This document shows, piece after piece, positions 27 through 48,631 of a stretch of 62,696 bases of DNA. The notes beneath the pieces were generated by a model. That model had not been told where the DNA came from. It made no database searches and worked only from the letters and a program-made list of their open reading frames with translations. A program made the position numbers and the translations under genes. Within the stretch, counting starts at the first letter, position 1, and every line of letters begins with the position of its first letter. This DNA comes from an uncultured Bacilli bacterium (GTDB taxonomy: Bacteria; Bacillota_I; Bacilli_A; RF39; UBA660): the NCBI GenBank assembly GCA_934153655.1, contig CAKPFH010000001.1, forward strand, positions 1 to 62,696, read 5' to 3'.

Positions 27-725
27 TTAATAGTTAGACTCCTTATATTCATCACTTTTTGATAAATTATGTATCTTCTTACTATAAAAATTTAACTCAT
101 CATACTTAGAAAATTTCTTTAGTTCATCTTCTGTATTAACAGTTAATAATTTATATAAATTATCATAATTTTCAAGATTATCATACCCTAATTTGGCATA
201 ATAATCAAGATTTATATTGATAATTTTCATAAGATAATCCATTTTATATCTTTCTTTGTAAACATCATCAAGTGGATATTCATAAAAAATTACTTTTTTA
301 GATGGAACTTTTTCACTTATGCCTTTGTTCCTATACCAATTTAAATTAACTAAAATAGTTTTATAAATATTTTCAGGTATAAATCCATAATAGGTAGCAT
401 TATCAATATTATAGTAATTAGATAAACCATTTAAAGAATATAAAACATTTCTTAGATAAAAACCATCATAGTTATTATTAAGTTCAATTATTATCTTTTG
501 ATTTTCATATTCAACTACTAAATCAACATATTTTGATCTTTCTTTTTCATTAGTTCTAGGTAATCTTATATTAATAACTTTTACTTTTCCTTTAACCTTA
601 GAAACATCACATTCAAGTATTTGAGATGCTGTCCACTCTAATAAACTCATATCATTTTCATTAAATAAATCGTGAAATAAAATATCACTTCTAACTTGTA
701 AAATCTCGTTTTTCTTATTCTCCAT
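27..725 (-). CDS. PD-(D/E)XK nuclease-family putative transposase (Rpn/YhgA-like)
   Basis: 232-aa ORF with GGAGG just upstream of the ATG at 725. It has an N-terminal SDILFHDLF motif and a D...E-x-K-like core (KYVDLVVEYENQKIIIELN) as in Rpn/PDDEXK_2 proteins. Recognised by eye only. Confidence 0.5.
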   Translation of the reverse strand: MENKKNEILQVRSDILFHDLFNENDMSLLEWTASQILECDVSKVKGKVKVINIRLPRTNEKERSKYVDLVVEYENQKIIIELNNNYDGFYLRNVLYSLNGLSNYYNIDNATYYGFIPENIYKTILVNLNWYRNKGISEKVPSKKVIFYEYPLDDVYKERYKMDYLMKIININLDYYAKLGYDNLENYDNLYKLLTVNTEDELKKFSKYDELNFYSKKIHNLSKSDEYKESNY

Positions 726-1171: not shown

Positions 1172-1199
1172 TATAAAACTACTTTCTAAAAGAAAGTAG
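1172..1199 (-). terminator. Intrinsic terminator downstream of the 660-aa surface protein gene
   Basis: Perfect 9-bp stem (ctactttct/agaaagtag, 1179-1187 and 1191-1199) with a 3-nt loop, followed on the minus strand by UUUUAU. Confidence 0.55.
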
Positions 1200-1207
1200 C
1201 AAAGAGT

Positions 1208-3190
1208 TTAATATTTTAAAGCTATTGTAAATGGATTACTTTTAGTTCCAGCTCCACCTGTTATAACGATATTTGATTTTAGATTAATAGATGGGCGAGC
1301 AGCATGGCTATTAGACGGATAGCTGTAGTTGCCGTAACCGCCGCTGATAACGTACCAAACATAAGAAGGGCTAACAGGTGGTGTTATTAACCAAATAGTA
1401 CTTGAACTATTATAACCGTTTCCTTGTTGACTTGCAAACATTTCTCCATATCTTGGTAATCCTACTAAACCTGTCCATATAGTTGTTGTTTTAATACAAG
1501 TTTTTGTTGTTTCATTTGTATTATTTGTATTACATAAAGAATTTTTATAACTTATTCCCCTAGATACTTGCTTTATATAATATGTTCCTTTGTCTAACAT
1601 ATTTTTTGATGCTAAACTATTATACCAAGTATTGTTCAAATAATAATCCCAGTAATCGTCACTTGTACCATTTCCATAAGTTGTACTTGTACTAAATTGT
1701 TTAGTTAATTTTGTTGTTCCATCTTTTATATAATCATTTTTATTTAATTTAACTTTTCCATCTTCAATTGATACTATTCTATATAACTCATTTGTTGAAA
1801 TATCTCCATCTTCATCAAACACTACATACTCACCTATTGTTCTGGTATTTAATAATGTAGTATTTATAGTTGGTTGTTCCTTATCTCCTGATATTGTATA
1901 TGGATCATCTTTCGTTCCTGATCCACCCGAAAGTTGGATATCAGATTTTAGATTAATAGACGGGCGAGCAGCATAGCTATTAGACGGAGTGTAGCTGTAG
2001 TTGCCGTTACCGATGTAGTAAACGCTCCAAACAGTAGAAGAGCTATATGGATTTAATAACCACCACCAATATCCTATATTTAAATAACCAGAGCCATAAC
2101 TTGTATTTTTATAACTTAAATAATATTCATAACTGTTCAAAAGTCCTACAGGAGTATTCTTACCAATTGTCGAATTATTTATTAAAGTTGTTTCAGGTAA
2201 TTTAGTGCTTATTGCACTTGTACTACTTGTATTAGAATTTGTTATATTCCAAGTACTATTTTCTACTATTATATTTTGATAATTATATAAAGTATCTAAG
2301 AAATCTTCGTTTAACCATTGATACATGTACGAACCAGTATAAGTTGTGTCATCTTTTTTAGATATATCATAAAAATTTATATCATTATCTTGATTATAAG
2401 AAATAGTTGTAATTGGATCATCTGTTATCATTTTCATTGTTCCATCTGGATTTATGGCTGTTATTCTCCATAGTTTACCGGAATACCAAACATAGTTAAA
2501 GTTTATACAATCTTTTGTTCCTGATACATAAGTTATTCCATCTTCTTCCAAATAAGTTTTACATGTGTCTGTTTGTTTTTCCTTTAAATCATTTATAAAT
2601 ATATGAGATAATTCTTTGTTAGTATCATTATAAGCATAAATATTTACATTAAACTTAAATGTTTGAGATACACTATTTTGTTCATAATCTTTATCAATCC
2701 AAGCATATAGTCTATATTTATTAGTTTTAGTTCCTGGATTATTACCAATATAAATAACTTTACCTATTTGTTTATCTGCTTGATAAGTAGTATTTTCTAA
2801 ACTATTATATATTTTAGGACTTACTACTTGATTATTATTTTCATCTGTTAAAAAAACTTTAATATAATTACTATCTAAAGTATTAGTAGTATCACCTGTT
2901 AAATATAATTCATAGGAAATTGCTTTATCTGGATTGTTTATAGTACTTGAAACTGTAAAATCTATATATGATAATTTATCTAGATTTTGTAAAGCAAATT
3001 CATCACTTATGGGGTAAGCATTTACCATTTTAATAGAATTAGTTCCACTTATAAATTCGGCTTTTATGATATCACTTGTTAAAGTAAATGCTTGAACACT
3101 TTTAGAATATGTAAAAAATGCATATGCTGATCCTAATAGTATTATTATTAAAAATATTATTCCAAATACTAAAGCTTTTTTATTTTTCAT
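1208..3190 (-). CDS. Signal-anchored surface protein with two repeat domains, each ending ...AARPSINLKS..GG.GTK..P(Y/F)TI
   Basis: 660-aa ORF with AAGAGG upstream of the ATG. It has a hydrophobic N-terminus (MKNKKALVFGIIFLIIILLGSAYA). The two paralogous domain ends each carry a GC-rich patch (see findings). The same domain type occurs in the partial ORF at the right window edge. Confidence 0.75.
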   Translation of the reverse strand: MKNKKALVFGIIFLIIILLGSAYAFFTYSKSVQAFTLTSDIIKAEFISGTNSIKMVNAYPISDEFALQNLDKLSYIDFTVSSTINNPDKAISYELYLTGDTTNTLDSNYIKVFLTDENNNQVVSPKIYNSLENTTYQADKQIGKVIYIGNNPGTKTNKYRLYAWIDKDYEQNSVSQTFKFNVNIYAYNDTNKELSHIFINDLKEKQTDTCKTYLEEDGITYVSGTKDCINFNYVWYSGKLWRITAINPDGTMKMITDDPITTISYNQDNDINFYDISKKDDTTYTGSYMYQWLNEDFLDTLYNYQNIIVENSTWNITNSNTSSTSAISTKLPETTLINNSTIGKNTPVGLLNSYEYYLSYKNTSYGSGYLNIGYWWWLLNPYSSSTVWSVYYIGNGNYSYTPSNSYAARPSINLKSDIQLSGGSGTKDDPYTISGDKEQPTINTTLLNTRTIGEYVVFDEDGDISTNELYRIVSIEDGKVKLNKNDYIKDGTTKLTKQFSTSTTYGNGTSDDYWDYYLNNTWYNSLASKNMLDKGTYYIKQVSRGISYKNSLCNTNNTNETTKTCIKTTTIWTGLVGLPRYGEMFASQQGNGYNSSSTIWLITPPVSPSYVWYVISGGYGNYSYPSNSHAARPSINLKSNIVITGGAGTKSNPFTIALKY

Positions 3191-3304
3191 ATATACCTCT
3201 TTTCTTCATAAAAAAATATGATTAAAATTATAGATATTTTCTATATTTTAATCATGTAATTTTCTTTATACTTTTTATTATTTTTAATCAACAAATTTGC
3301 TGTG

Positions 3305-3329
3305 ATATATATATATATATATATATATA
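3305..3329. repeat. (AT)12 dinucleotide microsatellite in the intergenic/promoter region
   Basis: Direct reading gives gtg-atatatatatatatatatatatata-g, about 115 bp upstream of the start codon at 3190. Confidence 0.95.
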
Positions 3330-3451
3330 GTTGTATAAGGGTTTTCGTAGTGTTATCTTGTCCATTTATATACATATATAATCACAGCCTTTCTATTATT
3401 AATATACTTAAATTATAAAATATTTTATTTAATTAATCAATATTTTTTTCA

Positions 3452-7477: not shown

Positions 7478-10400
7478 CTATGTATGACAACAAGTTTTGT
7501 AAGTCTTGCAAGCAAATGATGTACATTTATAGATAGTCATATCAGCAACATATGCTGTATTAGCGCCTCCTCGCCAGTTAGTATAAGTAACTTTGATAAA
7601 GGCTCCAACTCCTCCGGAATAAGTACAATAATTTTTATATGCCCCTATTGCACTTGCTGATTGTATACCTGTTGAATGTTTTGACCAACTAGTACACCTA
7701 CTACAAGTACTTCCAGCAGTTGATGCTGAATAACGGACTGAGCAGCCACAGGAAGAAGAAGCATTTCTAACTTTAACTGATACTGTTTTAGATTGAGTTG
7801 ATGAACCTTCAGCATTTGCACAGGTTACATTTATAGTTTTAGAACCAGTTGAAGATAAGTTAATAGTTGATGTATAAGTGTTACCAGATGTAGATGGTGC
7901 ATAAGAAGTTGAACCAATTTTAGCTGAATATGAAGTTATTGGTAAATCTGATCTACAAGTAACAGTTGCTGTTGCTCCTTTTATATAAGAACCACTACAA
8001 GTTGATGAGTCACCATTAACGGAAATTGTAATATCAGGGGCTGTTGCTTCGGTATTTTTAACTAAAACATTTACAGTTTCTGTACAACCATATTTAGTTT
8101 TAAAAGTTACTGTTGCACTTTTGGTTTGATTAACTGGAACGCTTCCAGAAACAGCACTAATAACACCACCTTTTGTTGCTGTTACCAAAGATGAGTTACT
8201 ACTTATTGCATCCGTCATTGATCCACATTGATTAGCAATTGATAAATTTTGTTGCATCTTTCGTTTAGATGTATTAGATGTAATATTTAAAACAACATCA
8301 CTTGGAGTTATACTTAAAAGTTTATTATTGCTAGTACATGAATAAGTATAACCACAACTATCGGCATTTGGAGTTGATTTTAAAGTTAAATTACTTAAAG
8401 TACTATTATTTTTTCTATTACCAGCTGCCCAACCTATTTTAGAACCATATACAACGGGATACCAGGTATGACCATCTCTCCAAGTATACTTTGAACTTTG
8501 AATATAAACTAAATCACCTTTACCAATAGATGCTAATTGAGGATAATCAGTTCCTGGTCCAGATCTTAATTTTAAATTATTGCCCACATTTCCAACAGCA
8601 GTTGCATATTTGTCTTGCCATACTAAGAATAAAGTCTTATCATTTTCAAGATATATTTGATCCCCAAAACAAAATTCTACATTGTTGCCACTTTGATTTG
8701 ATGATAAACCAAGTAATTGATATCCGTGATATTTATCTCCCCCATTATTTCTACATACTTTACCATTAGCATAAGTTGGAATATTAAACATTGCCCCATC
8801 AGTATTATATATAGTTTTAGTTTCAGTTTTACTTGTTAAATTATCAGTTGTTACAGTTGTTGAACTATTAGTATTATATTTTAAAGTAACATTTTTGGAA
8901 GTAATTGCAAATAAATCAATATCATCATGAAGAGTTATTTTTTGTCCTTGCGAATAAGTTGCTGTATGACTACTTGAATTTTCAGACCAACCAATTATTG
9001 TCCAACCAGATCTTGTAATTGTTGGTAAAGTAATACTACATTCATCAGGTAATTCATCTCCATTATAAGCATATCCTGCTGTACAACTAAGTTTATTAGA
9101 TGATGTAGAAGTTGCTCCATTTAAGTTGAAAGTTGCATAATAAGTATTTTGCGAAATACTTCTTGTAATAGCATAATAGCTTGGTAATTCAGCATCACCA
9201 GTTGGTTTATAAATAGTTACACTTTGATTTGCTGAATAATTAGCACTTGTTAATGAATCTCCATCATCACTATAACCAAGAGCTGTAAAGCCACTCTTTG
9301 GTGTAATAGTTGGAAGTGTTATGTTACAAGATGAACCATTAGTTGAATTACAACATTCTTTAGTATCAGTTGTCTTACTTCCTATTTTACTTGCTCCATT
9401 TATATAAATATTAGCACATACTTCAACACTATTTATTACTAAAGTTCCCTTTTGATAAGTTGGATTATAGTTAATGTTACCTGATCCATTATTAATACTA
9501 ATATTACTTGGAGTAATTGTTCCAGTGGTTGTTACATTTGAAGTTGAAGGTGTTAAAGTAATGCTTGTTGCTGTATCTCCACTTACTAAATTACTAACTG
9601 TTATATAACCTACTCCTGTTGCTATACTACTACCATAAGTAATGGTTTGATTATTAGCTTTAACTGTAATACTTCGTTTATTAATAGTAAAGTTTTTAGT
9701 TGTACTACTTTTATAGTTACCTTTACCTGTTATAGTAACTGTTGCAGTTCCTGCATTTATATTATTAGAATAACTTAAAGTATAATCTGTATTTAAAGTT
9801 AAAGTTTTAGACCCATCCTTAATAGTTACATTTGGTTTCTTTTCAGTTTTATCATAAGTATAAGAAGTATTATCTAAACTAATTGTTAAAGAACCAATGG
9901 TTTTAGAAATTATACTAAAGTTTGTACTACCACTAAAAGTTAAATTATAATTATTTGCTAAGAAAGTTCCATTATTAGCTAAAGCAAGGGTTCCTTTATT
10001 AATTGGATATGAACCAATATTTTCTCCTGCTGTTCTTTGAAGAGTTCCTGTGAACTTAGGAGTTTCCCCTGATATATTTCCGGAATAATTATAAGTTAAA
10101 GTAGGATCTGATGCTCCATATATTTTACTTTGATTACTTTTAGCTGTTACAGTTAAAACTTTCTTGTTAATTGAACAACTTAAATATTTAGTTGTTGTAT
10201 TATCAGAAAAAGCATAGTTTGAATTAGCAACATACATTACCATATAAGCTTTAGCATCCTTACCTTCATTATTTTTAATGGTTACATTATTTCCACCTTT
10301 AGCTAAAACTTGAGTTGCTCCGTTATAAGTTAGACTGTTACAAGTTCCAAGAGTTGCTGTTGCTAAACGATTTATTACTAAAGTTCCCTTTTGATAAGTT

Positions 10401-12514
10401 GGATTATAGTTAATGTTACCTGATCCATTATTAATACTAATATTACTTGGAGTAATTGTTCCAGTGGTTGTTACATTTGAAGTTGAAGGTGTTAAAGTAA
10501 TGCTTGTTGCTGTATCTCCACTTACTAAATTACTAACTGTTATATAACCTACTCCTGTTGCTATACTACTACCATAAGTAATGGTTTGATTATTAGCTTT
10601 AACTGTAATACTTCGTTTATTAATAGTAAAGTTTTTAGTTGTACTACTTTTATAGTTACCTTTACCTGTTATAGTAACTGTTGCAGTTCCTGCATTTATA
10701 TTATTAGAATAACTTAAAGTATAATCTGTATTTAAAGTTAAAGTTTTAGACCCATCCTTAATAGTTACATTTGGTTTCTTTTCAGTTTTATCATAAGTAT
10801 AAGAAGTATTATCTAAACTAATTGTTAAAGAACCAATGGTTTTAGAAATTATACTAAAGTTTGTACTACCACTAAAAGTTAAATTATAATTATTTGCTAA
10901 GAAAGTTCCATTATTAGCTAAAGCAAGGGTTCCTTTATTAATTGGATATGAACCAATATTTTCTCCTGCTGTTCTTTGAAGAGTTCCTGTGAACTTAGGA
11001 GTTTCCCCTGATATATTTCCGGAATAATTATAAGTTAAAGTAGGATCTGATGCTCCATATATTTTACTTTGATTACTTTTAGCTGTTACAGTTAAAACTT
11101 TCTTGTTAATTGAACAACTTAAATATTTAGTTGTTGTATTATCAGAAAAAGCATAATTGGAATTAGCAACATACATTACCATATAAGCTTTAGCATCCTT
11201 ACCTTCATTATTTTTAATAGTTACATTATTTCCACCTTTTGCAAGAACTTGGGTTGCTCCATTATAAGTTAAACTGTTACAAATTCCAAGAGTTGCTGTT
11301 GTTTGTCTATTAATTGTACAAGTAAATTTTACATCTTCTGTACTATTATCATTCCATTTATAATTATCATTTAATCTAGCAGATACTTCATAACTACCTG
11401 CATTTGTTCCTTTATTATTAATAAATGTATAACCAGTTCCTGCACTTTTTGTTAATACTTGTTCCACTCCATTATAAGTTAAACTATTACAATAAGTACT
11501 ATCTGGTTTATTAACCTTATTGTATACTTCAAATACAACTTTTCTTGTACTAGTATTACCTGCAAAGTCCTCTATTTCTATAATTAAATTAGTTAAGCCA
11601 AGACTTAGAGTTTTATTTATTTCAAAACTTGTATTAGTACTTTCAATATTAACATATTTCTTGGTATCTCCTTTTTCAAAGGAATATCTAATACTTTTAA
11701 CACCACTTTCTAAGTCTTTTATATCATTTACTTTTACATTTACATCAACACTACTACTAGTTATTTCTTTAGATACTTTATCTTGAACAACACCATTATT
11801 TTCTAAAATAATAAAATCAGGATTGTTTCTATCTACTTTTATATTAATATATTCTGTTTTAGTTTCTTGATTATTAGTTATACCATAGTATTTATAATTA
11901 CCACTTTCTAAAACATTAACACTACAAGTTCTAAGACCACTATCATTCATATTACAACTATAAGTTTTATCATCACTTTTAATTTCAACTTTAGATACAT
12001 CATTTAAAGTAGTAAAAGTTAATTTTACATATTTATTTACCCATTCCCCTTCTCGATAAATAGTTCCTGTATCATTTTTAGTAGGTACCATCTTTAAAGA
12101 ATAATCAACTTCTCCACTACATTCTCTTGAGGTAGTTTTATAATTATCTTGACTACAAATAAGACATACATAATAATTAGTTTTATCATAACTATTTTTA
12201 TAAGCTGCTAAATAACTGGTTTCTAAATCACATGTATTTCCTCTTTTATCTAAAACATTTGTTGTATACTTTAAGTCAATTACATCTTTTAATGATACTT
12301 TTTTTACATCTCCATACATCTGAGGTCTATCACTTGTATATGCAAAATACTCTCCACCTGTTACTAACAAAGATTCTTCTAAGCTTTTATAATAAGTAGT
12401 TCTTATATGTTTACTTATTCCAACATAAGCAGCACTAACAATACCAAGTATTATTGCTAATACGGCTATAGTTGATAATAATTCTACTAAAGTAAATCCT
12501 TTTTTATTTTTCAT
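7478..12514 (-). CDS. Giant (1678 aa) prepilin-type N-terminal cleavage/methylation domain protein; modular pilin-like adhesin
   Basis: The N-terminus is MKNKKG|FTLVELLSTIAVLAIILGIV (class III signal peptide: Gly-1, Phe+1, Glu+5). It carries MBG-like (KIYGASDPTLTYNYSG...NYNLTF) and ...TYDKTEKKPNVTIKDG..LTLNTDYTLSYSNNINAGTATVTITGKGNY repeats, and an SH3b-like segment (LKLRSGPGTDYPQLASIGKGDLVYI...WYPVVYGSKIGWAAG). The last 93 aa contain 9 Cys. Confidence 0.85.
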   Translation of the reverse strand: MKNKKGFTLVELLSTIAVLAIILGIVSAAYVGISKHIRTTYYKSLEESLLVTGGEYFAYTSDRPQMYGDVKKVSLKDVIDLKYTTNVLDKRGNTCDLETSYLAAYKNSYDKTNYYVCLICSQDNYKTTSRECSGEVDYSLKMVPTKNDTGTIYREGEWVNKYVKLTFTTLNDVSKVEIKSDDKTYSCNMNDSGLRTCSVNVLESGNYKYYGITNNQETKTEYINIKVDRNNPDFIILENNGVVQDKVSKEITSSSVDVNVKVNDIKDLESGVKSIRYSFEKGDTKKYVNIESTNTSFEINKTLSLGLTNLIIEIEDFAGNTSTRKVVFEVYNKVNKPDSTYCNSLTYNGVEQVLTKSAGTGYTFINNKGTNAGSYEVSARLNDNYKWNDNSTEDVKFTCTINRQTTATLGICNSLTYNGATQVLAKGGNNVTIKNNEGKDAKAYMVMYVANSNYAFSDNTTTKYLSCSINKKVLTVTAKSNQSKIYGASDPTLTYNYSGNISGETPKFTGTLQRTAGENIGSYPINKGTLALANNGTFLANNYNLTFSGSTNFSIISKTIGSLTISLDNTSYTYDKTEKKPNVTIKDGSKTLTLNTDYTLSYSNNINAGTATVTITGKGNYKSSTTKNFTINKRSITVKANNQTITYGSSIATGVGYITVSNLVSGDTATSITLTPSTSNVTTTGTITPSNISINNGSGNINYNPTYQKGTLVINRLATATLGTCNSLTYNGATQVLAKGGNNVTIKNNEGKDAKAYMVMYVANSNYAFSDNTTTKYLSCSINKKVLTVTAKSNQSKIYGASDPTLTYNYSGNISGETPKFTGTLQRTAGENIGSYPINKGTLALANNGTFLANNYNLTFSGSTNFSIISKTIGSLTISLDNTSYTYDKTEKKPNVTIKDGSKTLTLNTDYTLSYSNNINAGTATVTITGKGNYKSSTTKNFTINKRSITVKANNQTITYGSSIATGVGYITVSNLVSGDTATSITLTPSTSNVTTTGTITPSNISINNGSGNINYNPTYQKGTLVINSVEVCANIYINGASKIGSKTTDTKECCNSTNGSSCNITLPTITPKSGFTALGYSDDGDSLTSANYSANQSVTIYKPTGDAELPSYYAITRSISQNTYYATFNLNGATSTSSNKLSCTAGYAYNGDELPDECSITLPTITRSGWTIIGWSENSSSHTATYSQGQKITLHDDIDLFAITSKNVTLKYNTNSSTTVTTDNLTSKTETKTIYNTDGAMFNIPTYANGKVCRNNGGDKYHGYQLLGLSSNQSGNNVEFCFGDQIYLENDKTLFLVWQDKYATAVGNVGNNLKLRSGPGTDYPQLASIGKGDLVYIQSSKYTWRDGHTWYPVVYGSKIGWAAGNRKNNSTLSNLTLKSTPNADSCGYTYSCTSNNKLLSITPSDVVLNITSNTSKRKMQQNLSIANQCGSMTDAISSNSSLVTATKGGVISAVSGSVPVNQTKSATVTFKTKYGCTETVNVLVKNTEATAPDITISVNGDSSTCSGSYIKGATATVTCRSDLPITSYSAKIGSTSYAPSTSGNTYTSTINLSSTGSKTINVTCANAEGSSTQSKTVSVKVRNASSSCGCSVRYSASTAGSTCSRCTSWSKHSTGIQSASAIGAYKNYCTYSGGVGAFIKVTYTNWRGGANTAYVADMTIYKCTSFACKTYKTCCHT
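9432..11309. repeat. Tandem duplication, 2 x 939 bp (313 codons), inside the giant pilin gene
   Basis: Copy 9432-10370 and copy 10371-11309 are identical by eye over the first ~785 bp. They then diverge at scattered positions over the last ~150 bp. Confidence 0.95.
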
Positions 12515-12522
12515 AATCTCTC

Positions 12523-12882
12523 CTATACTTCTTTACAACTACTTGGAATATTTATATTTAAATCTTTATAAAGTTCTTTTGAACTTTGATCTTTGCAACT
12601 TAAATAGGCTTCCATTGTATTTATTTTAACATAACCATTACAAGTTATCTTATTATTTATTTTAGTAATACCAAGTTCACTTAAACAAATATATTCTTTT
12701 TTAGTATAATTAGGCATAGTCTTAACATATTTTATCATCATATCTTTATAAGTATTAAATTGTTTATTTTGATTAGAAGTATAAATATTTTTAACACTTG
12801 GAAATATTAATAACATTATTAAAGACATTAAAACAATAACAGCAAGTAATTCAACTAAAGTAAAGCCTTTATTTTTTATCAT
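12523..12882 (-). CDS. Type IV pilin/pseudopilin-like protein
   Basis: MIKNKG|FTLVELLAVIVLMSLIMLLIF prepilin motif. The start was refined to the ATG at 12882 with a GGTGA RBS; the track start at 12891 is a GTG inside the RBS. Confidence 0.8.
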   Translation of the reverse strand: MIKNKGFTLVELLAVIVLMSLIMLLIFPSVKNIYTSNQNKQFNTYKDMMIKYVKTMPNYTKKEYICLSELGITKINNKITCNGYVKINTMEAYLSCKDQSSKELYKDLNINIPSSCKEV

Positions 12883-12957
12883 TCTTATCACCTTTTATTT
12901 TACTATTTTAGTATATCAAAAAAAGTAAAAAAAAAATAGATATTTTCATAATATTAT

Positions 12958-46573: not shown

Positions 46574-46755
46574 TAATAACTATTTAGGCAAAGGTTCAAT
46601 AAAATCTAGTGTGAAGTAAAAATTGACAAAATCGTTGTCATATATGAAAAAAAACATGTTTTTTGGTACTAAAAATCATAACATGTTTTTTTTAGCCTTT
46701 TTATGGTATTTTTTGGACAATTAAAAAAACCTACTTGGAGTAAAAAATATATTTG

Positions 46756-47778
46756 TTATTTTTTAACTTTGGAGCGATTTTTATTTTTATTTGTGGCACT
46801 TATTTTACCATTAAATATATATAATATTCTTCCTCTAAATAATTCAAAACTTTTATACCCAAAAGCATTTCTTTTTATTACTTTTATTTTATTATTTATT
46901 CCTTCTGTATATCCGTTACTATATCTTTCATCTATAAATGAATTTAATATATATTCTTTCCACCTAGATATTGTTCCTGCTGCTTCTATAAACTCTGGTA
47001 TATTTTTCTCTATACATTTACTAATCCATCTAGTTATTTGCACATCAACATCCATTTGATTATAATGATGAACAATATCTAAAAATTCCTCTTTTAAATA
47101 ATACCCTTTCTTTAAATCATTTGATATTTTAAATATATCATCAAGTATATCTGATGGTAAAACATCTATCATGTGTCCATTTTTATATCTTTTTGTTATT
47201 ACAAACCAGTTTATATCATTACTATATTTTTTTAACAAGCTAACATTCTTTTTATTTTTTAATAATTTATATTCTTTACTTTTTTCTCCATATAAATTTT
47301 GTAATCTTATTCTTATATTATCTAGCGCATCCATTATATAAGTGATATAATGAAATCGGTCAACAACATACTTTGCTCTGGGGAACATTGTTTTGGTGAC
47401 CAATAAATATGGTTCGTACATATCTGATATTACGAACTCTACTGAATGTCTATTATCACAATATGTAAAATATTGCATTAGACATTCTTTTTTTCTATTT
47501 GGTAATACATCTAATACTTTTTTATGTATTGAATCATTTAATATAAAAGCATACTTTCCTTCTCTTGTATCTGCTTTAAATTCATCAAATGATATTACTT
47601 TTGGTAAATTAATTACATGTTTAGGCATTGATGAAATTATATTTAACATTTCATTTTCTACTGATGTTATTGAAACTCTATTTTTTTCTGCTATATATTT
47701 TAAAGATAAATTATAATTAAGCAATTCCTTTCTTATTTGTATTTTTACTTTATTTGATATACTACCTTTACTTGTCAA
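46756..47778 (-). pseudogene. ISL3 transposase, C-terminal DDE portion (frameshifted)
   Basis: SFDEFKADTREGKYAFILND..., VISDMYEPY, DRFHYI and ...SNGYTEGINNKIKVIKRNAFGYKSFELFR are ISL3 DDE signatures. The ORF begins only at a TTG directly after the N-terminal fragment. Confidence 0.8.
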
Positions 47779-48026
47779 TTATAACAATGATACCTCTTCT
47801 TATATATAATTAAATTTACATTTGTACCACAACTATCTAAATAATTACTCTTTATTGGTTTTAATCTATCATGCACAGAACTTGTAAATTTGTTACATAT
47901 TGGACACCTTACTTTTTGCTTTTTATTTTCTATATGTATCTCGATTAATCCTTTATTTTTCTGATTAAATTCTTTTATTTTTACCTCCTTGCTATTTAAT
48001 CCTATTAGTAAATAATAATCTTTCAT
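47775..48026 (-). pseudogene. ISL3 transposase, N-terminal zinc-finger portion
   Basis: VRCPICNKFTSSVHDRLKPIKSNYLD...KKRYHCYN is followed by TGA. Restoring one base after AAT-TG would join it in frame to the DDE ORF, giving about 423 aa in total. Confidence 0.8.
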
Positions 48027-48145
48027 TTATACCTCCTATCATCATTATTATTTACTTTATAATAACACAAAATAGAGATGACAAATTATCATCTCTATTT
48101 CACACTAAATTTTATTGCTTATTCAGTTCAACTTCACACTAAATT

Positions 48146-48631
48146 TTATTGAGTCTTAGCAAATACGTGAGCTGAATTTAAACTACCTTCAGCAACAGCA
48201 GTAGTTGTTCCTGATGCATTAGATATATAATGGTCTCCATTAGCATCTTTTAAATAAATTGCATATGTAAATGTTTGGCAATTATCAGATGCAGTAACTG
48301 TTACTTTAGAACCAGCTTTATCATAAGCAGTTCCCCATGGAGTTTTATCTGTATCAGCACCTTTAGTTTTAATATTACTTAATGCTATATCAAATGTTCC
48401 AGCACAAGTTGTTACATAAGTACCAGATCCACCTAACATTGCTTCAACCATATCTGCTTCTACTAAAGATTTAGCACCTTCAACGAATTGCTTAGCTGAA
48501 GCAACAAAAGCATTTTTTCTTGTTGAATCAAGTACGTTAGTAATAGCAACAGCAGCAATACCCATAACAATTGCAAGAACAACGATAACAGCAAGTAATT
48601 CAACTAAAGTAAAACCTTTTTTATTTTTCAT
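48146..48631 (-). CDS. Type IV pilin (major-pilin-like)
   Basis: MKNKKG|FTLVELLAVIVVLAIVMGIAAVAITNVL. The ATG at 48631 is preceded by GGAGGA. The gene is noticeably GC-richer than its neighbours. Its stop codon lies inside the IS terminal repeat. Confidence 0.85.
   Translation of the reverse strand: MKNKKGFTLVELLAVIVVLAIVMGIAAVAITNVLDSTRKNAFVASAKQFVEGAKSLVEADMVEAMLGGSGTYVTTCAGTFDIALSNIKTKGADTDKTPWGTAYDKAGSKVTVTASDNCQTFTYAIYLKDANGDHYISNASGTTTAVAEGSLNSAHVFAKTQ

Follow-up and report, generated by a model that had tools for sequence, protein, structure and literature searches.

Why should two short stretches of one gene in a very AT-rich genome be composed so differently from everything around them? 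The question is raised by a contig of an uncultured Bacilli bacterium that was analyzed over its entire length of 62,696 nucleotides (the window). The first-pass annotation had described two GC-rich patches in a gene of this contig and proposed them to be current or former variable regions (VRs) of a diversity-generating retroelement (DGR). The patches lie where it had placed them, within a single open reading frame (ORF) on the minus strand (1208..3190; all features of the gene given below are on this strand), and the codon strings it had quoted for both are correct. The contrast of about 50 versus 25% G + C also holds, with 49.7% in the 53 VR codons, 25.4% in the remaining gene, and 23.6% in the whole window. 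Over 90-nt segments, the G + C content reaches maxima of 0.46 (1306-1395) and 0.44 (1936-2025) against ~0.2-0.3 nearby. Codons ending in a pyrimidine show a C-to-T ratio of 25:24 within the VRs, as opposed to 27:278 in the remaining gene (Fisher p = 2.7e-11), and GCTGCTCGCCC is found in exactly 2 copies in the window, where 0.01 would be expected.

The ORF codes for a product of 660 amino acids that is probably exposed at the cell surface. A hydrophobic anchor and a beta-rich domain make up its N-terminal part, and two DUF6273 domains follow in tandem. The signal or membrane anchor (3101..3190), which begins MKNKKALVFGIIFLIIILLGSAYAFF, was assigned from the translation and a modeled helix at residues 3-24. 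The first DUF6273 domain (residues ~206-437; 1880..2575) was delimited by internal repeat boundaries and by a Pfam match to PF19789 (28.7 bits, gathering score 23.5; residues 266-416, profile positions 17-172 of 172). The second, DUF6273-like domain (residues ~438-660; 1211..1879) stays under the PF19789 threshold when taken alone, but is a clear paralogue of the first by internal similarity and matches phrog_9958 at residues 596-644. About 1165 homologues of the protein were retrieved, and those bearing a name belong to Erysipelotrichaceae/Bacilli MAGs. The AlphaFold2 model of the full-length protein, based on an alignment of 75 sequences, is confident solely at roughly residues 40-250, and the DUF6273 domains were predicted with low confidence (pLDDT ~30-60 in the full-length model, mean 39.5 in a domain-only model with 22 sequences). 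A profile search of PDB sequences gave matches at chance level only. The putative C-type-lectin-like fold of both domains rests on the literature, in which DUF6273 is known as a C-type-lectin-like domain that DGRs target and that carries the VR C-terminally (PMC10743442; PMC11792537; bioRxiv 10.1101/2024.10.15.618418).

What the patches were copied from could be deduced from the patches alone. A 78-nt, AAC-rich template repeat (TR) was predicted in this way before any TR had been seen, and was later matched at 78/78 positions in the metagenomic contig L204; contig L202 contains it with one change, in both cases within a cassette that encodes a DGR-type reverse transcriptase (RT). The cognate TR, which is of the AAR type, can be recognized by ...AATGCTGCTCGCTTAGAG. 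Comparison with the TR of L204, a related contig of another organism than that of the window, places VR1 at 1964..2044 (81 nt) and VR2 at 1295..1372 (78 nt), at the C-terminal ends of the first and second domain, respectively. In VR1, 8/26 adenines of the TR but 0/52 other bases are changed, and one extra codon (3 nt) is present in the AAC tract; in VR2 the changes affect 11/26 adenines and 1/52 other bases, the latter at the 5' edge. Both window VRs together thus differ from this TR at 19/52 adenines and 1/104 other bases, and in seven VRs of the window type from four loci the respective counts are 74/182 and 5/364 (p = 1.6e-34). In addition, L204 carries a target-gene remnant, 87 nt of the 3' end of the gene, that is 94% identical to the window gene. 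The DiGReF criteria call for a TR with at least 10 adenines, at least 7 A-to-non-A substitutions, and a match at every non-A position (PMC3521204); with the L204 TR as reference, the differences of VR1 and VR2 fall only or almost only on TR adenines. The 3-nt length difference between the patches, which had been regarded as incompatible with a single shared template, is no argument against one, since extra codons in the AAC tract also occur in VRs that adjoin their own TR (L196, L198, and L134).

Could the patches have originated without a DGR, either as DNA from a higher-GC donor or as Tyr/Ser/Gly/Asn-rich loops that were homogenized by gene conversion and diversified by mutation and selection? 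At the DNA level, the patches do resemble each other more than the entire domains do (~80% DNA identity over patch and 3' flank, ~33% protein identity between the domains), and the 3' halves of VR1 and VR2 show an identical substitution pattern (GGC AAC TAC AGC TA), which hints at conversion between them to some extent. An origin of this kind is nevertheless highly improbable and can be regarded as effectively refuted: the differences are restricted to the adenine positions of a real TR with the significance given above, third positions at synonymous sites have stayed as in the TR, residues outside the NNC/NNT repertoire are excluded, and a DGR-type RT cassette adjoins homologous genes. The adenine-specific pattern also led to the rejection of a horizontal transfer of GC-rich patches. 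A scan of a genome collection with TGGNNCGTTNNCNNCNNCGGTNNCGGCNNC, a pattern that suits any high-GC coding DNA, gave at least about 118 irrelevant loci and one VR (L047) among the matches listed, and a scan of JGI metagenomes with a stricter gapped pattern gave one further VR (L123) and no TR. No higher-GC source was found, the collection scans having yielded, among the matches listed, homologous VRs of low-GC loci only (L047 and L123), and viral contigs nothing. In the latter (IMG/VR), patterns for the 5' part of the predicted TR, the 3' junction of the TR, and the cassette RNA gave nothing relevant; the pattern for the 3' part of the VR included the CC after CGC and was thus incapable of matching a TR. 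A blastn search of GenBank phages with the predicted TR returned only short AAC-rich matches that were due to chance or to unrelated TRs.

Judged by their sequence, both patches therefore are what they had been suspected to be, DGR variable regions in tandem, putative binding domains of a probable surface protein, because the differences sit at the adenines of a real TR and a DGR-RT cassette adjoins homologous genes. In close relatives (L127-L129, L130, L133-L135, L193, and L196-L205), such cassettes directly follow the target gene and are arranged as TR, structured RNA, small ORF, putative Avd, and RT. The near-copy of the patches that the first-pass annotation had expected to exist, with adenines at the mismatching positions, is present in these related contigs: in L127, L193, L198, L202, and L204, a TR that places adenine precisely where the VRs vary lies beside an Avd-like ORF and an RT of DGR type, downstream of homologues of the target gene. 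The first cassette was reached via P0082, a homologue of the window protein with a different N-terminal region, and the others through RT homologues. The RT matches RVT_1 (6.7e-21) and phrog_1423 (1e-59) and contains the motifs IGSVCSQ and YMDD (L127, L193, and L196-L205), of which the former agrees with the (I/V/L)GxxxSQ hallmark in domain 4 of DGR RTs (PMC3521204). A 109-amino-acid ORF upstream of the RT aligns over the full length (1-104 of 104) of the NCBIfam model DivGenRetAVD with E = 6e-6 and 26.5 bits, the curated cut-off being 80, and has no match in Pfam. The RNA behind the TR is conserved in its fold, with 9 compensatory pairs, and includes a terminator; it is described by the motif AAATGGAGATGT(N25-40)ACTCGCATTAA; an Rfam scan of the TR region gave no family. 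An ORF encoded by the TR itself was left uncalled by gene callers in each of ~20 cassette loci.

The homology between TR and VR has a sharp 3' border. The GC-rich tail that had been described as following both patches belongs to the template-matching stretch up to ...GCTGCTCGC, whereas the next CC is outside of it, the TR continuing with TTAGAG instead. Behind every VR, in all lineages, this flank, CC(A/G)TCTATTAATCTAAAATC, is nearly identical at the DNA level. The respective 20-nt segments in the window, CCGTCTATTAATCTAAAATC behind VR1 (1944..1963) and CCATCTATTAATCTAAAATC behind VR2 (1275..1294), consist of conserved DNA in which the TR homology is already over, and are candidate target-recognition sequences resembling an initiation of mutagenic homing (IMH) site.

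In the alignment of 75 homologues, the two VRs account for 24 of the 30 columns with the highest variability, and column entropy averages 1.94 there versus 0.63 elsewhere. Residues beyond the coding capacity of NNC/NNT are almost absent from the VRs: the share of K/E/Q/M/W is 2.2% at hypervariable VR columns versus 16% elsewhere. Among lineages, the patches are thus hypervariable, and a higher-GC donor need not be invoked. Among the window, L001, and L047, 18-20% of the codons for the same amino acid differ outside the VRs, and TR-dictated third positions inside the VRs differ at 1/120. Templating of the VRs was evidently recent, because their synonymous sites have not drifted (1/120) in comparison with ~19% outside. 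A different picture is presented by L002, whose VRs, unlike those of the window, contain the codons AAA, ATG, and GTA and T-ending codons; they appear to have been orphaned long ago.

Where, then, is the retroelement that wrote the VRs of the window? A TR, an RT, an Avd gene, and the TR-associated RNA are all absent from the window, which represents the entire 62.7-kb contig, and for TR and RT this bears out what the first-pass annotation had stated. In blastn comparisons, the homology to L127, L198, and L196 stops at position 1174, just past the terminator hairpin of the target gene (CTACTTTCTTTTAGAAAGTAG; 1174..1207), which is the last stretch common to the window and the cassette-bearing loci. 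The TR cassette of the relatives begins ~90 nt beyond this terminator, where the window contains unrelated DNA. No RT was found within 10 kb of L001, L002, and L126, which contain the closest full-length homologues. Past the left contig end, as judged via the neighboring gene in a related contig, an IS110 transposase is located and no cassette. An ISL3 element lies within the window.

Cassette-less loci occur in at least three different downstream contexts, namely in the window, in L001 beside proS, and in L123 beside a T-box and a tRNA synthetase; L047 likewise lacks a cassette. The gene of the window is probably a remote target, on which a cassette at another site of this genome would act in trans and which is rarely rewritten. 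A TR apart from its VRs is seen in L202, where one of the AAR type adjoins a VR2 of the GVR type, so that the VRs it matches must be elsewhere. Most RT contigs are shorter than 5 kb, and a cassette contig may therefore easily be absent from a genome bin. A less probable but serious alternative is that the VRs are orphaned: the same kind of DGR would have written them, and its cassette would since have been lost, either through deletion or rearrangement near the IS-rich contig end or because a cassette at another locus disappeared, leaving two frozen alleles that evolve as ordinary coding DNA. This would account for 62.7 kb without a cassette and for the end of the homology to cassette-bearing loci right past the terminator, and IS elements are at hand with the IS110 transposase beyond the end of the window and the ISL3 within it. 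In L196 and L197, this ISL3 (96% identical) is found inserted in the cassette, which shows how such cassettes become disrupted. Retention of target genes after the loss of a DGR has been reported for phages (bioRxiv 10.1101/2024.10.15.618418), and L002 is apparently such a case.

The stability of the VRs would also suit an orphaned state, but does not decide the matter. Between the window and L126, which are 99.33% identical over 12.4 kb, 14 differences are found in the target gene and 0 in the VRs. In the L001 lineage, the near-identical proteins P0005, P0122, and P0123 have the same VRs, with one protein occurring on 18 contigs, and among the handful of genomes compared no rewriting of VRs is visible between near-identical ones. 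Moreover, VR1 and VR2 alleles occur in all four combinations in P0010, P0012, P0013, and P0014, as expected of stable alleles that are shuffled by recombination. However, the cassette-bearing target P0082 is identical on 15 contigs, and VR stability therefore does not discriminate between a remote target and an orphaned one. What speaks against orphaned VRs is that they show no decay, with non-A mismatches at 1/104 and third positions all dictated by the TR, against ~19% synonymous differences outside, so that any loss of the cassette would have to be very recent. Such a very recent loss would be needed independently at L001, L047, and L123 as well. A rarely rewritten remote target is favored for this reason: fresh VRs at loci with at least three downstream contexts argue for a cassette elsewhere rather than for repeated very recent losses.

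The experimentally characterized prototype of these elements is the DGR of Bordetella phage BPP-1 (mtd, avd, TR, brt). By analogy with it, a single ~78-nt AAC-rich TR would be transcribed within the structured RNA, and the DGR reverse transcriptase together with Avd would copy it into cDNA with misincorporation opposite the template adenines. The cDNA would then substitute the homologous stretch at the end of both DUF6273 domains, turning AAC/AAT codons into NNC/NNT and randomizing two putative ligand-binding faces. In this way, a C-rich, TR-dictated sequence would be maintained inside a gene of otherwise 25% GC. Both systems share the adenine-specific substitution from TR to VR, an AAC-rich TR, a VR that ends a (for the window, putatively) lectin-like domain, a putative Avd-like protein, and an RT with an SQ motif. 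Common to both is also the divergence of TR and VR just 3' of the repeat, and therefore a one-directional copying. In contrast to BPP-1, with its 14-bp G/C IMH, the window system is without such an element, its homology ending after an Arg codon (CGC/CGT); it further differs by two VRs per gene, a TR upstream of avd, and an extremely AT-rich host. Cellular DGRs with surface-protein targets are represented by TvpA of Treponema denticola and LdtA of Legionella, which resemble the window gene as chromosomal systems that diversify a surface protein via a C-terminal VR of lectin fold (putative in the window), but have a single VR, a domain of the formylglycine-generating-enzyme/DUF323 type, and an adjacent cassette.

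DGRs of gut phages also target DUF6273, as in the tentaclins of nd4/nd12 (PMC10743442), the Faecalibacterium prophages Lelie, CP11, Roos, and Pioen (PMC11792537), and Toutatisvirus (bioRxiv 10.1101/2024.10.15.618418). Besides the DUF6273 target, these systems have in common with the window gene and its relatives the C-terminal VR, one TR for two VRs, and targets without a nearby DGR. Their two VRs are located in separate genes, whereas both VRs of the window are in tandem domains of one ORF, and their order is Avd, TR, RT, compared with target, TR, RNA, ORF, Avd, RT in the relatives of the window. Also unlike them, the window element is chromosomal with housekeeping neighbors, and nothing similar was found in IMG/VR. 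In Thiohalocapsa PB-PSB1, where activity in trans was shown by population data (PMC10907252), remote targets without RT and TR of their own are diversified in trans, a service that for the window is only inferred. That system, too, is cellular, has several VRs in one target gene, and diversifies its VRs unequally, but it differs in phylum, target architecture (sensors of conflict systems), and ecology (PMC10907252).

The window gene is a good example of a known DGR system and not a new system, and the understanding of how DGRs work is unchanged by the present results. They give an unannotated surface protein of uncultured, very AT-rich gut Bacilli, Hadza samples included, a concrete function: it would present two independently randomized lectin-like binding faces, whose variable ligands are presumably located on host, food, or phages. 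Standard DGR finders start at the RT and search nearby, and would therefore miss this gene; spikes in G + C and NNC codons in AT-rich genomes can flag such targets when the retroelement is on another contig. The family, with its cassette-adjacent, cassette-remote, IS-disrupted, and decayed targets, is a natural comparison set in which the duration of VR "freshness", the recognition of remote targets, and the exchange of TR alleles can be addressed.

For the last of these, it is conceivable, although unlikely, that one chromosomal cassette serves several dispersed two-VR paralogues in trans and that the TR allele chooses the paralogue. If so, a recombinational swap of the TR would re-address hypermutation to another set of surface-protein genes. 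Cassettes that are 99.5-99.9% identical to each other carry either an "AAR" or a "GVR" TR, with non-A differences in the center and at the 3' end. The AAR-type TR of L202 does not fit the VR2 beside it but matches remote, cassette-less genes such as that of the window.

The two GC-rich patches lie within a single ORF on the minus strand (1208–3190; 660 amino acids). In sliding 90-nt windows the G + C content peaks at 0.46 (1306–1395) and 0.44 (1936–2025), compared with 0.2–0.3 in the surroundings; over the 53 codons of both patches it amounts to 49.7%, versus 25.4% in the rest of the gene and 23.6% in the window. The C:T ratio among codons ending in a pyrimidine is 25:24 for the patches and 27:278 for the remainder of the gene (p = 2.7e-11), and the window contains exactly two copies of GCTGCTCGCCC, where 0.01 would be expected. 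Each patch forms the 3' end of one of a pair of paralogous domains. The G + C peaks, the codon C:T ratio, and the domain paralogy thus confirm the first-pass annotation, which had described GC-rich, NNC-codon patches in paralogous domain ends and whose quoted codon strings are correct.

The encoded protein starts with an N-terminal hydrophobic anchor, followed by a beta-rich domain, which is the sole part modelled confidently by AlphaFold2, and then by DUF6273 (Pfam PF19789) twice in tandem. Copy 1 scores 28.7 bits against PF19789 (cut-off 23.5), and copy 2 is its clear paralogue. DUF6273 has been described as C-type-lectin-like and as bearing the variable region (VR) of gut-phage targets of diversity-generating retroelements (DGRs) at its C-terminus (PMC10743442; PMC11792537; bioRxiv 10.1101/2024.10.15.618418). 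Based on the Pfam match and this literature, both domains would adopt a lectin fold. Approximately 1165 homologues were found in public metagenomes; the named sources are Erysipelotrichaceae or “uncultured Bacilli” MAGs, many of them from human gut, Hadza samples included. The protein's N-terminal third (alignment A2 columns 1–230; residues 1–205, window 2576–3190) varies in a modular fashion, with at least four unrelated types (P0001/P0005, P0024/P0030, P0026/P0035, and P0082) fused to one well-conserved DUF6273 pair. The target gene occurs in several different genomic contexts, and a perfect intergenic (AT)n microsatellite of about 26 nt is located upstream of it (3301–3330).

In alignments of 26 and then 75 homologues, the protein was well conserved save for two blocks, VW.V...G......PS...(A/G)(A/V)RP. 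Within residues 206–660, the 52 VR columns include 24 of the 30 with the highest variability, and their mean entropy is 1.94 bits versus 0.63 in the other columns. The residues K, E, Q, M, and W, which cannot be encoded by NNC or NNT codons, make up 2.2% at the 28 hypervariable VR columns versus 16% elsewhere.

A template repeat (TR) was predicted from four VRs, those of the window and of a homologue locus (L001), by taking every difference as derived from an A. No copy of the predicted sequence, AGCTCTTCTAATGTTTGGAACGTTAACAACAACGGTAACGGCAACAACAACAATCCGTCTAATAGCAATGCTGCTCGC, was found in the window or in L001, L002, L003, or L047. The TR of L204, a locus from a related organism and not from the window's genome, equals the prediction at 78 of 78 positions, and that of L202 differs from it only by one AAC to AGC change. 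Compared with the L204 TR, VR2 of the window (1295–1372) is changed at 11 of 26 A and at 1 of 52 non-A positions, the latter at the 5' edge, whereas VR1 (1964–2044) is changed at 8 of 26 A and none of 52 non-A positions, its AAC tract being longer by one codon. For seven VRs of this type (window, L001, L047, and L123) the changes amount to 74 of 182 A versus 5 of 364 non-A positions (Fisher p = 1.6e-34). The 3-nt indel had originally been considered a misfit to a single template, a reservation that can be dropped since extra AAC-tract codons also occur in VRs adjoining their own TR (L196, L198, and L134) and are thus normal for this VR family. Homology between TR and VR stops directly after the Arg codon, where the VRs continue with CC(A/G)TC(T/A)ATTAATCTAAAATC and the TR with TTAGAG. 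Across all lineages the DNA of this 3' flank is unusually conserved, behind VR1 and VR2 alike, and the flank is a candidate target-recognition sequence. Eight template adenines in a row have also ended up identically in the two VRs of the window (1320–1333 and 1992–2005; AAC AAC AAC AAT to AAC TAC AGC TA(T/C)), unlike their 5' halves, which differ. By rough estimate, chance would produce this with a probability of about 1e-3. Gene conversion from one VR to the other, partial re-homing limited to the 5' part, or selection may account for it.

No reverse transcriptase (RT) was found within 10 kb of the closest full-length homologues. P0082, a homologue with a different N-terminal region and 81% identity across both DUF6273 domains, is encoded in locus L127, where its gene is followed by ORFs of 98 and 109 amino acids and a 320-amino-acid RVT_1 protein. 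Beginning 124 nt past the stop codon is a TR (AGC TCT TCT AAT GTT TGG AAC GTT AAC AAC AAC GGT AAT GCT AAC AAC AAC AAT ...) from which both VRs of this gene differ at A positions. A search with the RT retrieved related cassettes on about 20 further contigs, L204 among them, arranged in the order two-VR target gene, terminator, TR, conserved RNA, small ORF (63–113 amino acids; absent in L193), 109-amino-acid ORF, and RT (315–325 amino acids). The RT matches RVT_1 (6.7e-21) and the phage RT family phrog_1423 (1e-59) and bears YMDD as well as IGSVCSQ, in agreement with the (I/V/L)GxxxSQ hallmark of DGR RTs (PMC3521204). The 109-amino-acid ORF aligns end-to-end with NCBIfam DivGenRetAVD at E = 6e-6, far under the curated cut-off, and is likely Avd. 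The RNA after the TR is a conserved non-coding element of approximately 180–190 nt (L127 12089–12270; also in L193, L204, L130, L133, L134, and L135). Its predicted fold is conserved with nine compensatory pairs and ends in a terminator-like hairpin; it matched no Rfam family and is probably the counterpart of the cDNA-priming DGR “spacer” RNA. IMG/VR yielded no copy of the cassette, its neighbours are housekeeping genes (purA, peptidyl-prolyl isomerase, murJ, and bacA), and as far as can be seen it is not phage-borne. With this cassette in relatives and the adenine-biased differences from the L204 TR, the initial reading of the patches as current or former DGR variable regions proved right.

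Cassettes encoding an identical RT (P0126) are 99.4–100% identical across avd, RT, and murJ, but nonetheless differ in VR2 (L196, L198, and L202) and bear two TR alleles. Among L196–L205 these alleles read ...GGT AAC GGC...GCT GCT CGC and ...GGT AAT GCT...GGT GTT CGC (e.g., L204 192–275 and L198 5073–5150). The L202 TR and its adjacent VR2 show eight non-A mismatches, counted from the sequences, and the 3' third of the L127 TR likewise differs from both L127 VRs at non-A positions; recombination, re-addressing, or assembly chimerism could account for this. RT-bearing contigs mostly measure 1–5 kb, and many start within or beside VR2 or the TR (e.g., L130, L133, L197, L199, and L204), which is suggestive of within-sample VR heterogeneity where the cassette is present, but could also reflect recombination or assembly effects. 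The cassette-less window assembles unbroken through both VRs.

As stated in the first-pass annotation, the window contains neither a TR nor an RT, and Avd, small ORF, and cassette RNA were also not found in its 62,696 nt, which make up the whole contig. Homology to cassette-bearing loci stops at about 1174, just past the terminator hairpin, and is followed by unrelated DNA and a 232-amino-acid ORF without family match, next to which a related contig carries an IS110 transposase. The window's VRs show no decay. Among the cassette-less loci of the window, L001, and L047, which have different downstream contexts, 18–20% of same-amino-acid codons outside the VRs differ, in contrast to 1 of 120 TR-dictated third positions inside them; each locus was therefore re-templated by the same TR sequence after the lineages split. 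It seems probable that the window gene is a remote target, served in trans: fresh templating is apparent at all of these cassette-less loci, the L202 TR, of AAR type, adjoins a GVR-type VR2 (the two types differ at non-A positions), so that the VRs matching this TR must be located elsewhere, and RT contigs, being mostly shorter than 5 kb, would often escape binning. Alternatively, though more tentatively, the gene may be an orphan whose cassette was lost very recently. How such a loss can begin is illustrated by the L196 and L197 cassettes, where an ISL3-family element that inserted after the TR-associated RNA, ahead of the small ORF, probably disables the cassette; a 96% identical copy is present in the window (46590–48151; 340-amino-acid ORF at 46756–47778, DDE_Tnp_ISL3 6e-58). 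In a strain 99.33% identical to the window over 12.4 kb (L126), the target gene has 14 differences, of which 13 are confined to its first 340 nt and all lie outside the two VRs; VRs are likewise shared among near-identical proteins of the L001 lineage, so that no rewriting is visible on this timescale. Such stasis does not separate a remote target from an orphan, since the cassette-adjacent target P0082 is unchanged across 15 contigs as well. In contrast to the intact VRs of the window, those of P0016 (L002 10001–11992), with no cassette nearby, lack the NNC signature and contain AAA, ATG, GTA, and T-ending codons; this is apparently a decayed, long-orphaned target. Downstream of the cassette-less homologue in L123, a sequence resembling a T-box leader by eye precedes a tRNA synthetase gene (520–700, minus strand).

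Judged by its sequence features, the system is mechanistically a standard DGR, and DUF6273 targets, one TR for two VRs, several VRs per gene, and remote targets in trans are already documented. Particular here are a predicted surface protein, encoded on the chromosome, that bears one VR in each of its two tandem domains, the TR-first cassette order, the extreme AT-richness of the host, against which the VRs are compositionally conspicuous, and the combination of adjacent, remote, IS-hit, and decayed targets in one family. Elsewhere in the window, a 1678-amino-acid protein (7478–12514) has a prepilin-type N-terminal methylation motif, MBG_2 repeats, and a repeated block of about 313 amino acids. 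Its gene contains a 100% identical duplication (9428–9727 and 10367–10666; 300 nt reported, 939 nt apart) and adjoins small pilin-like genes (12523–12891).
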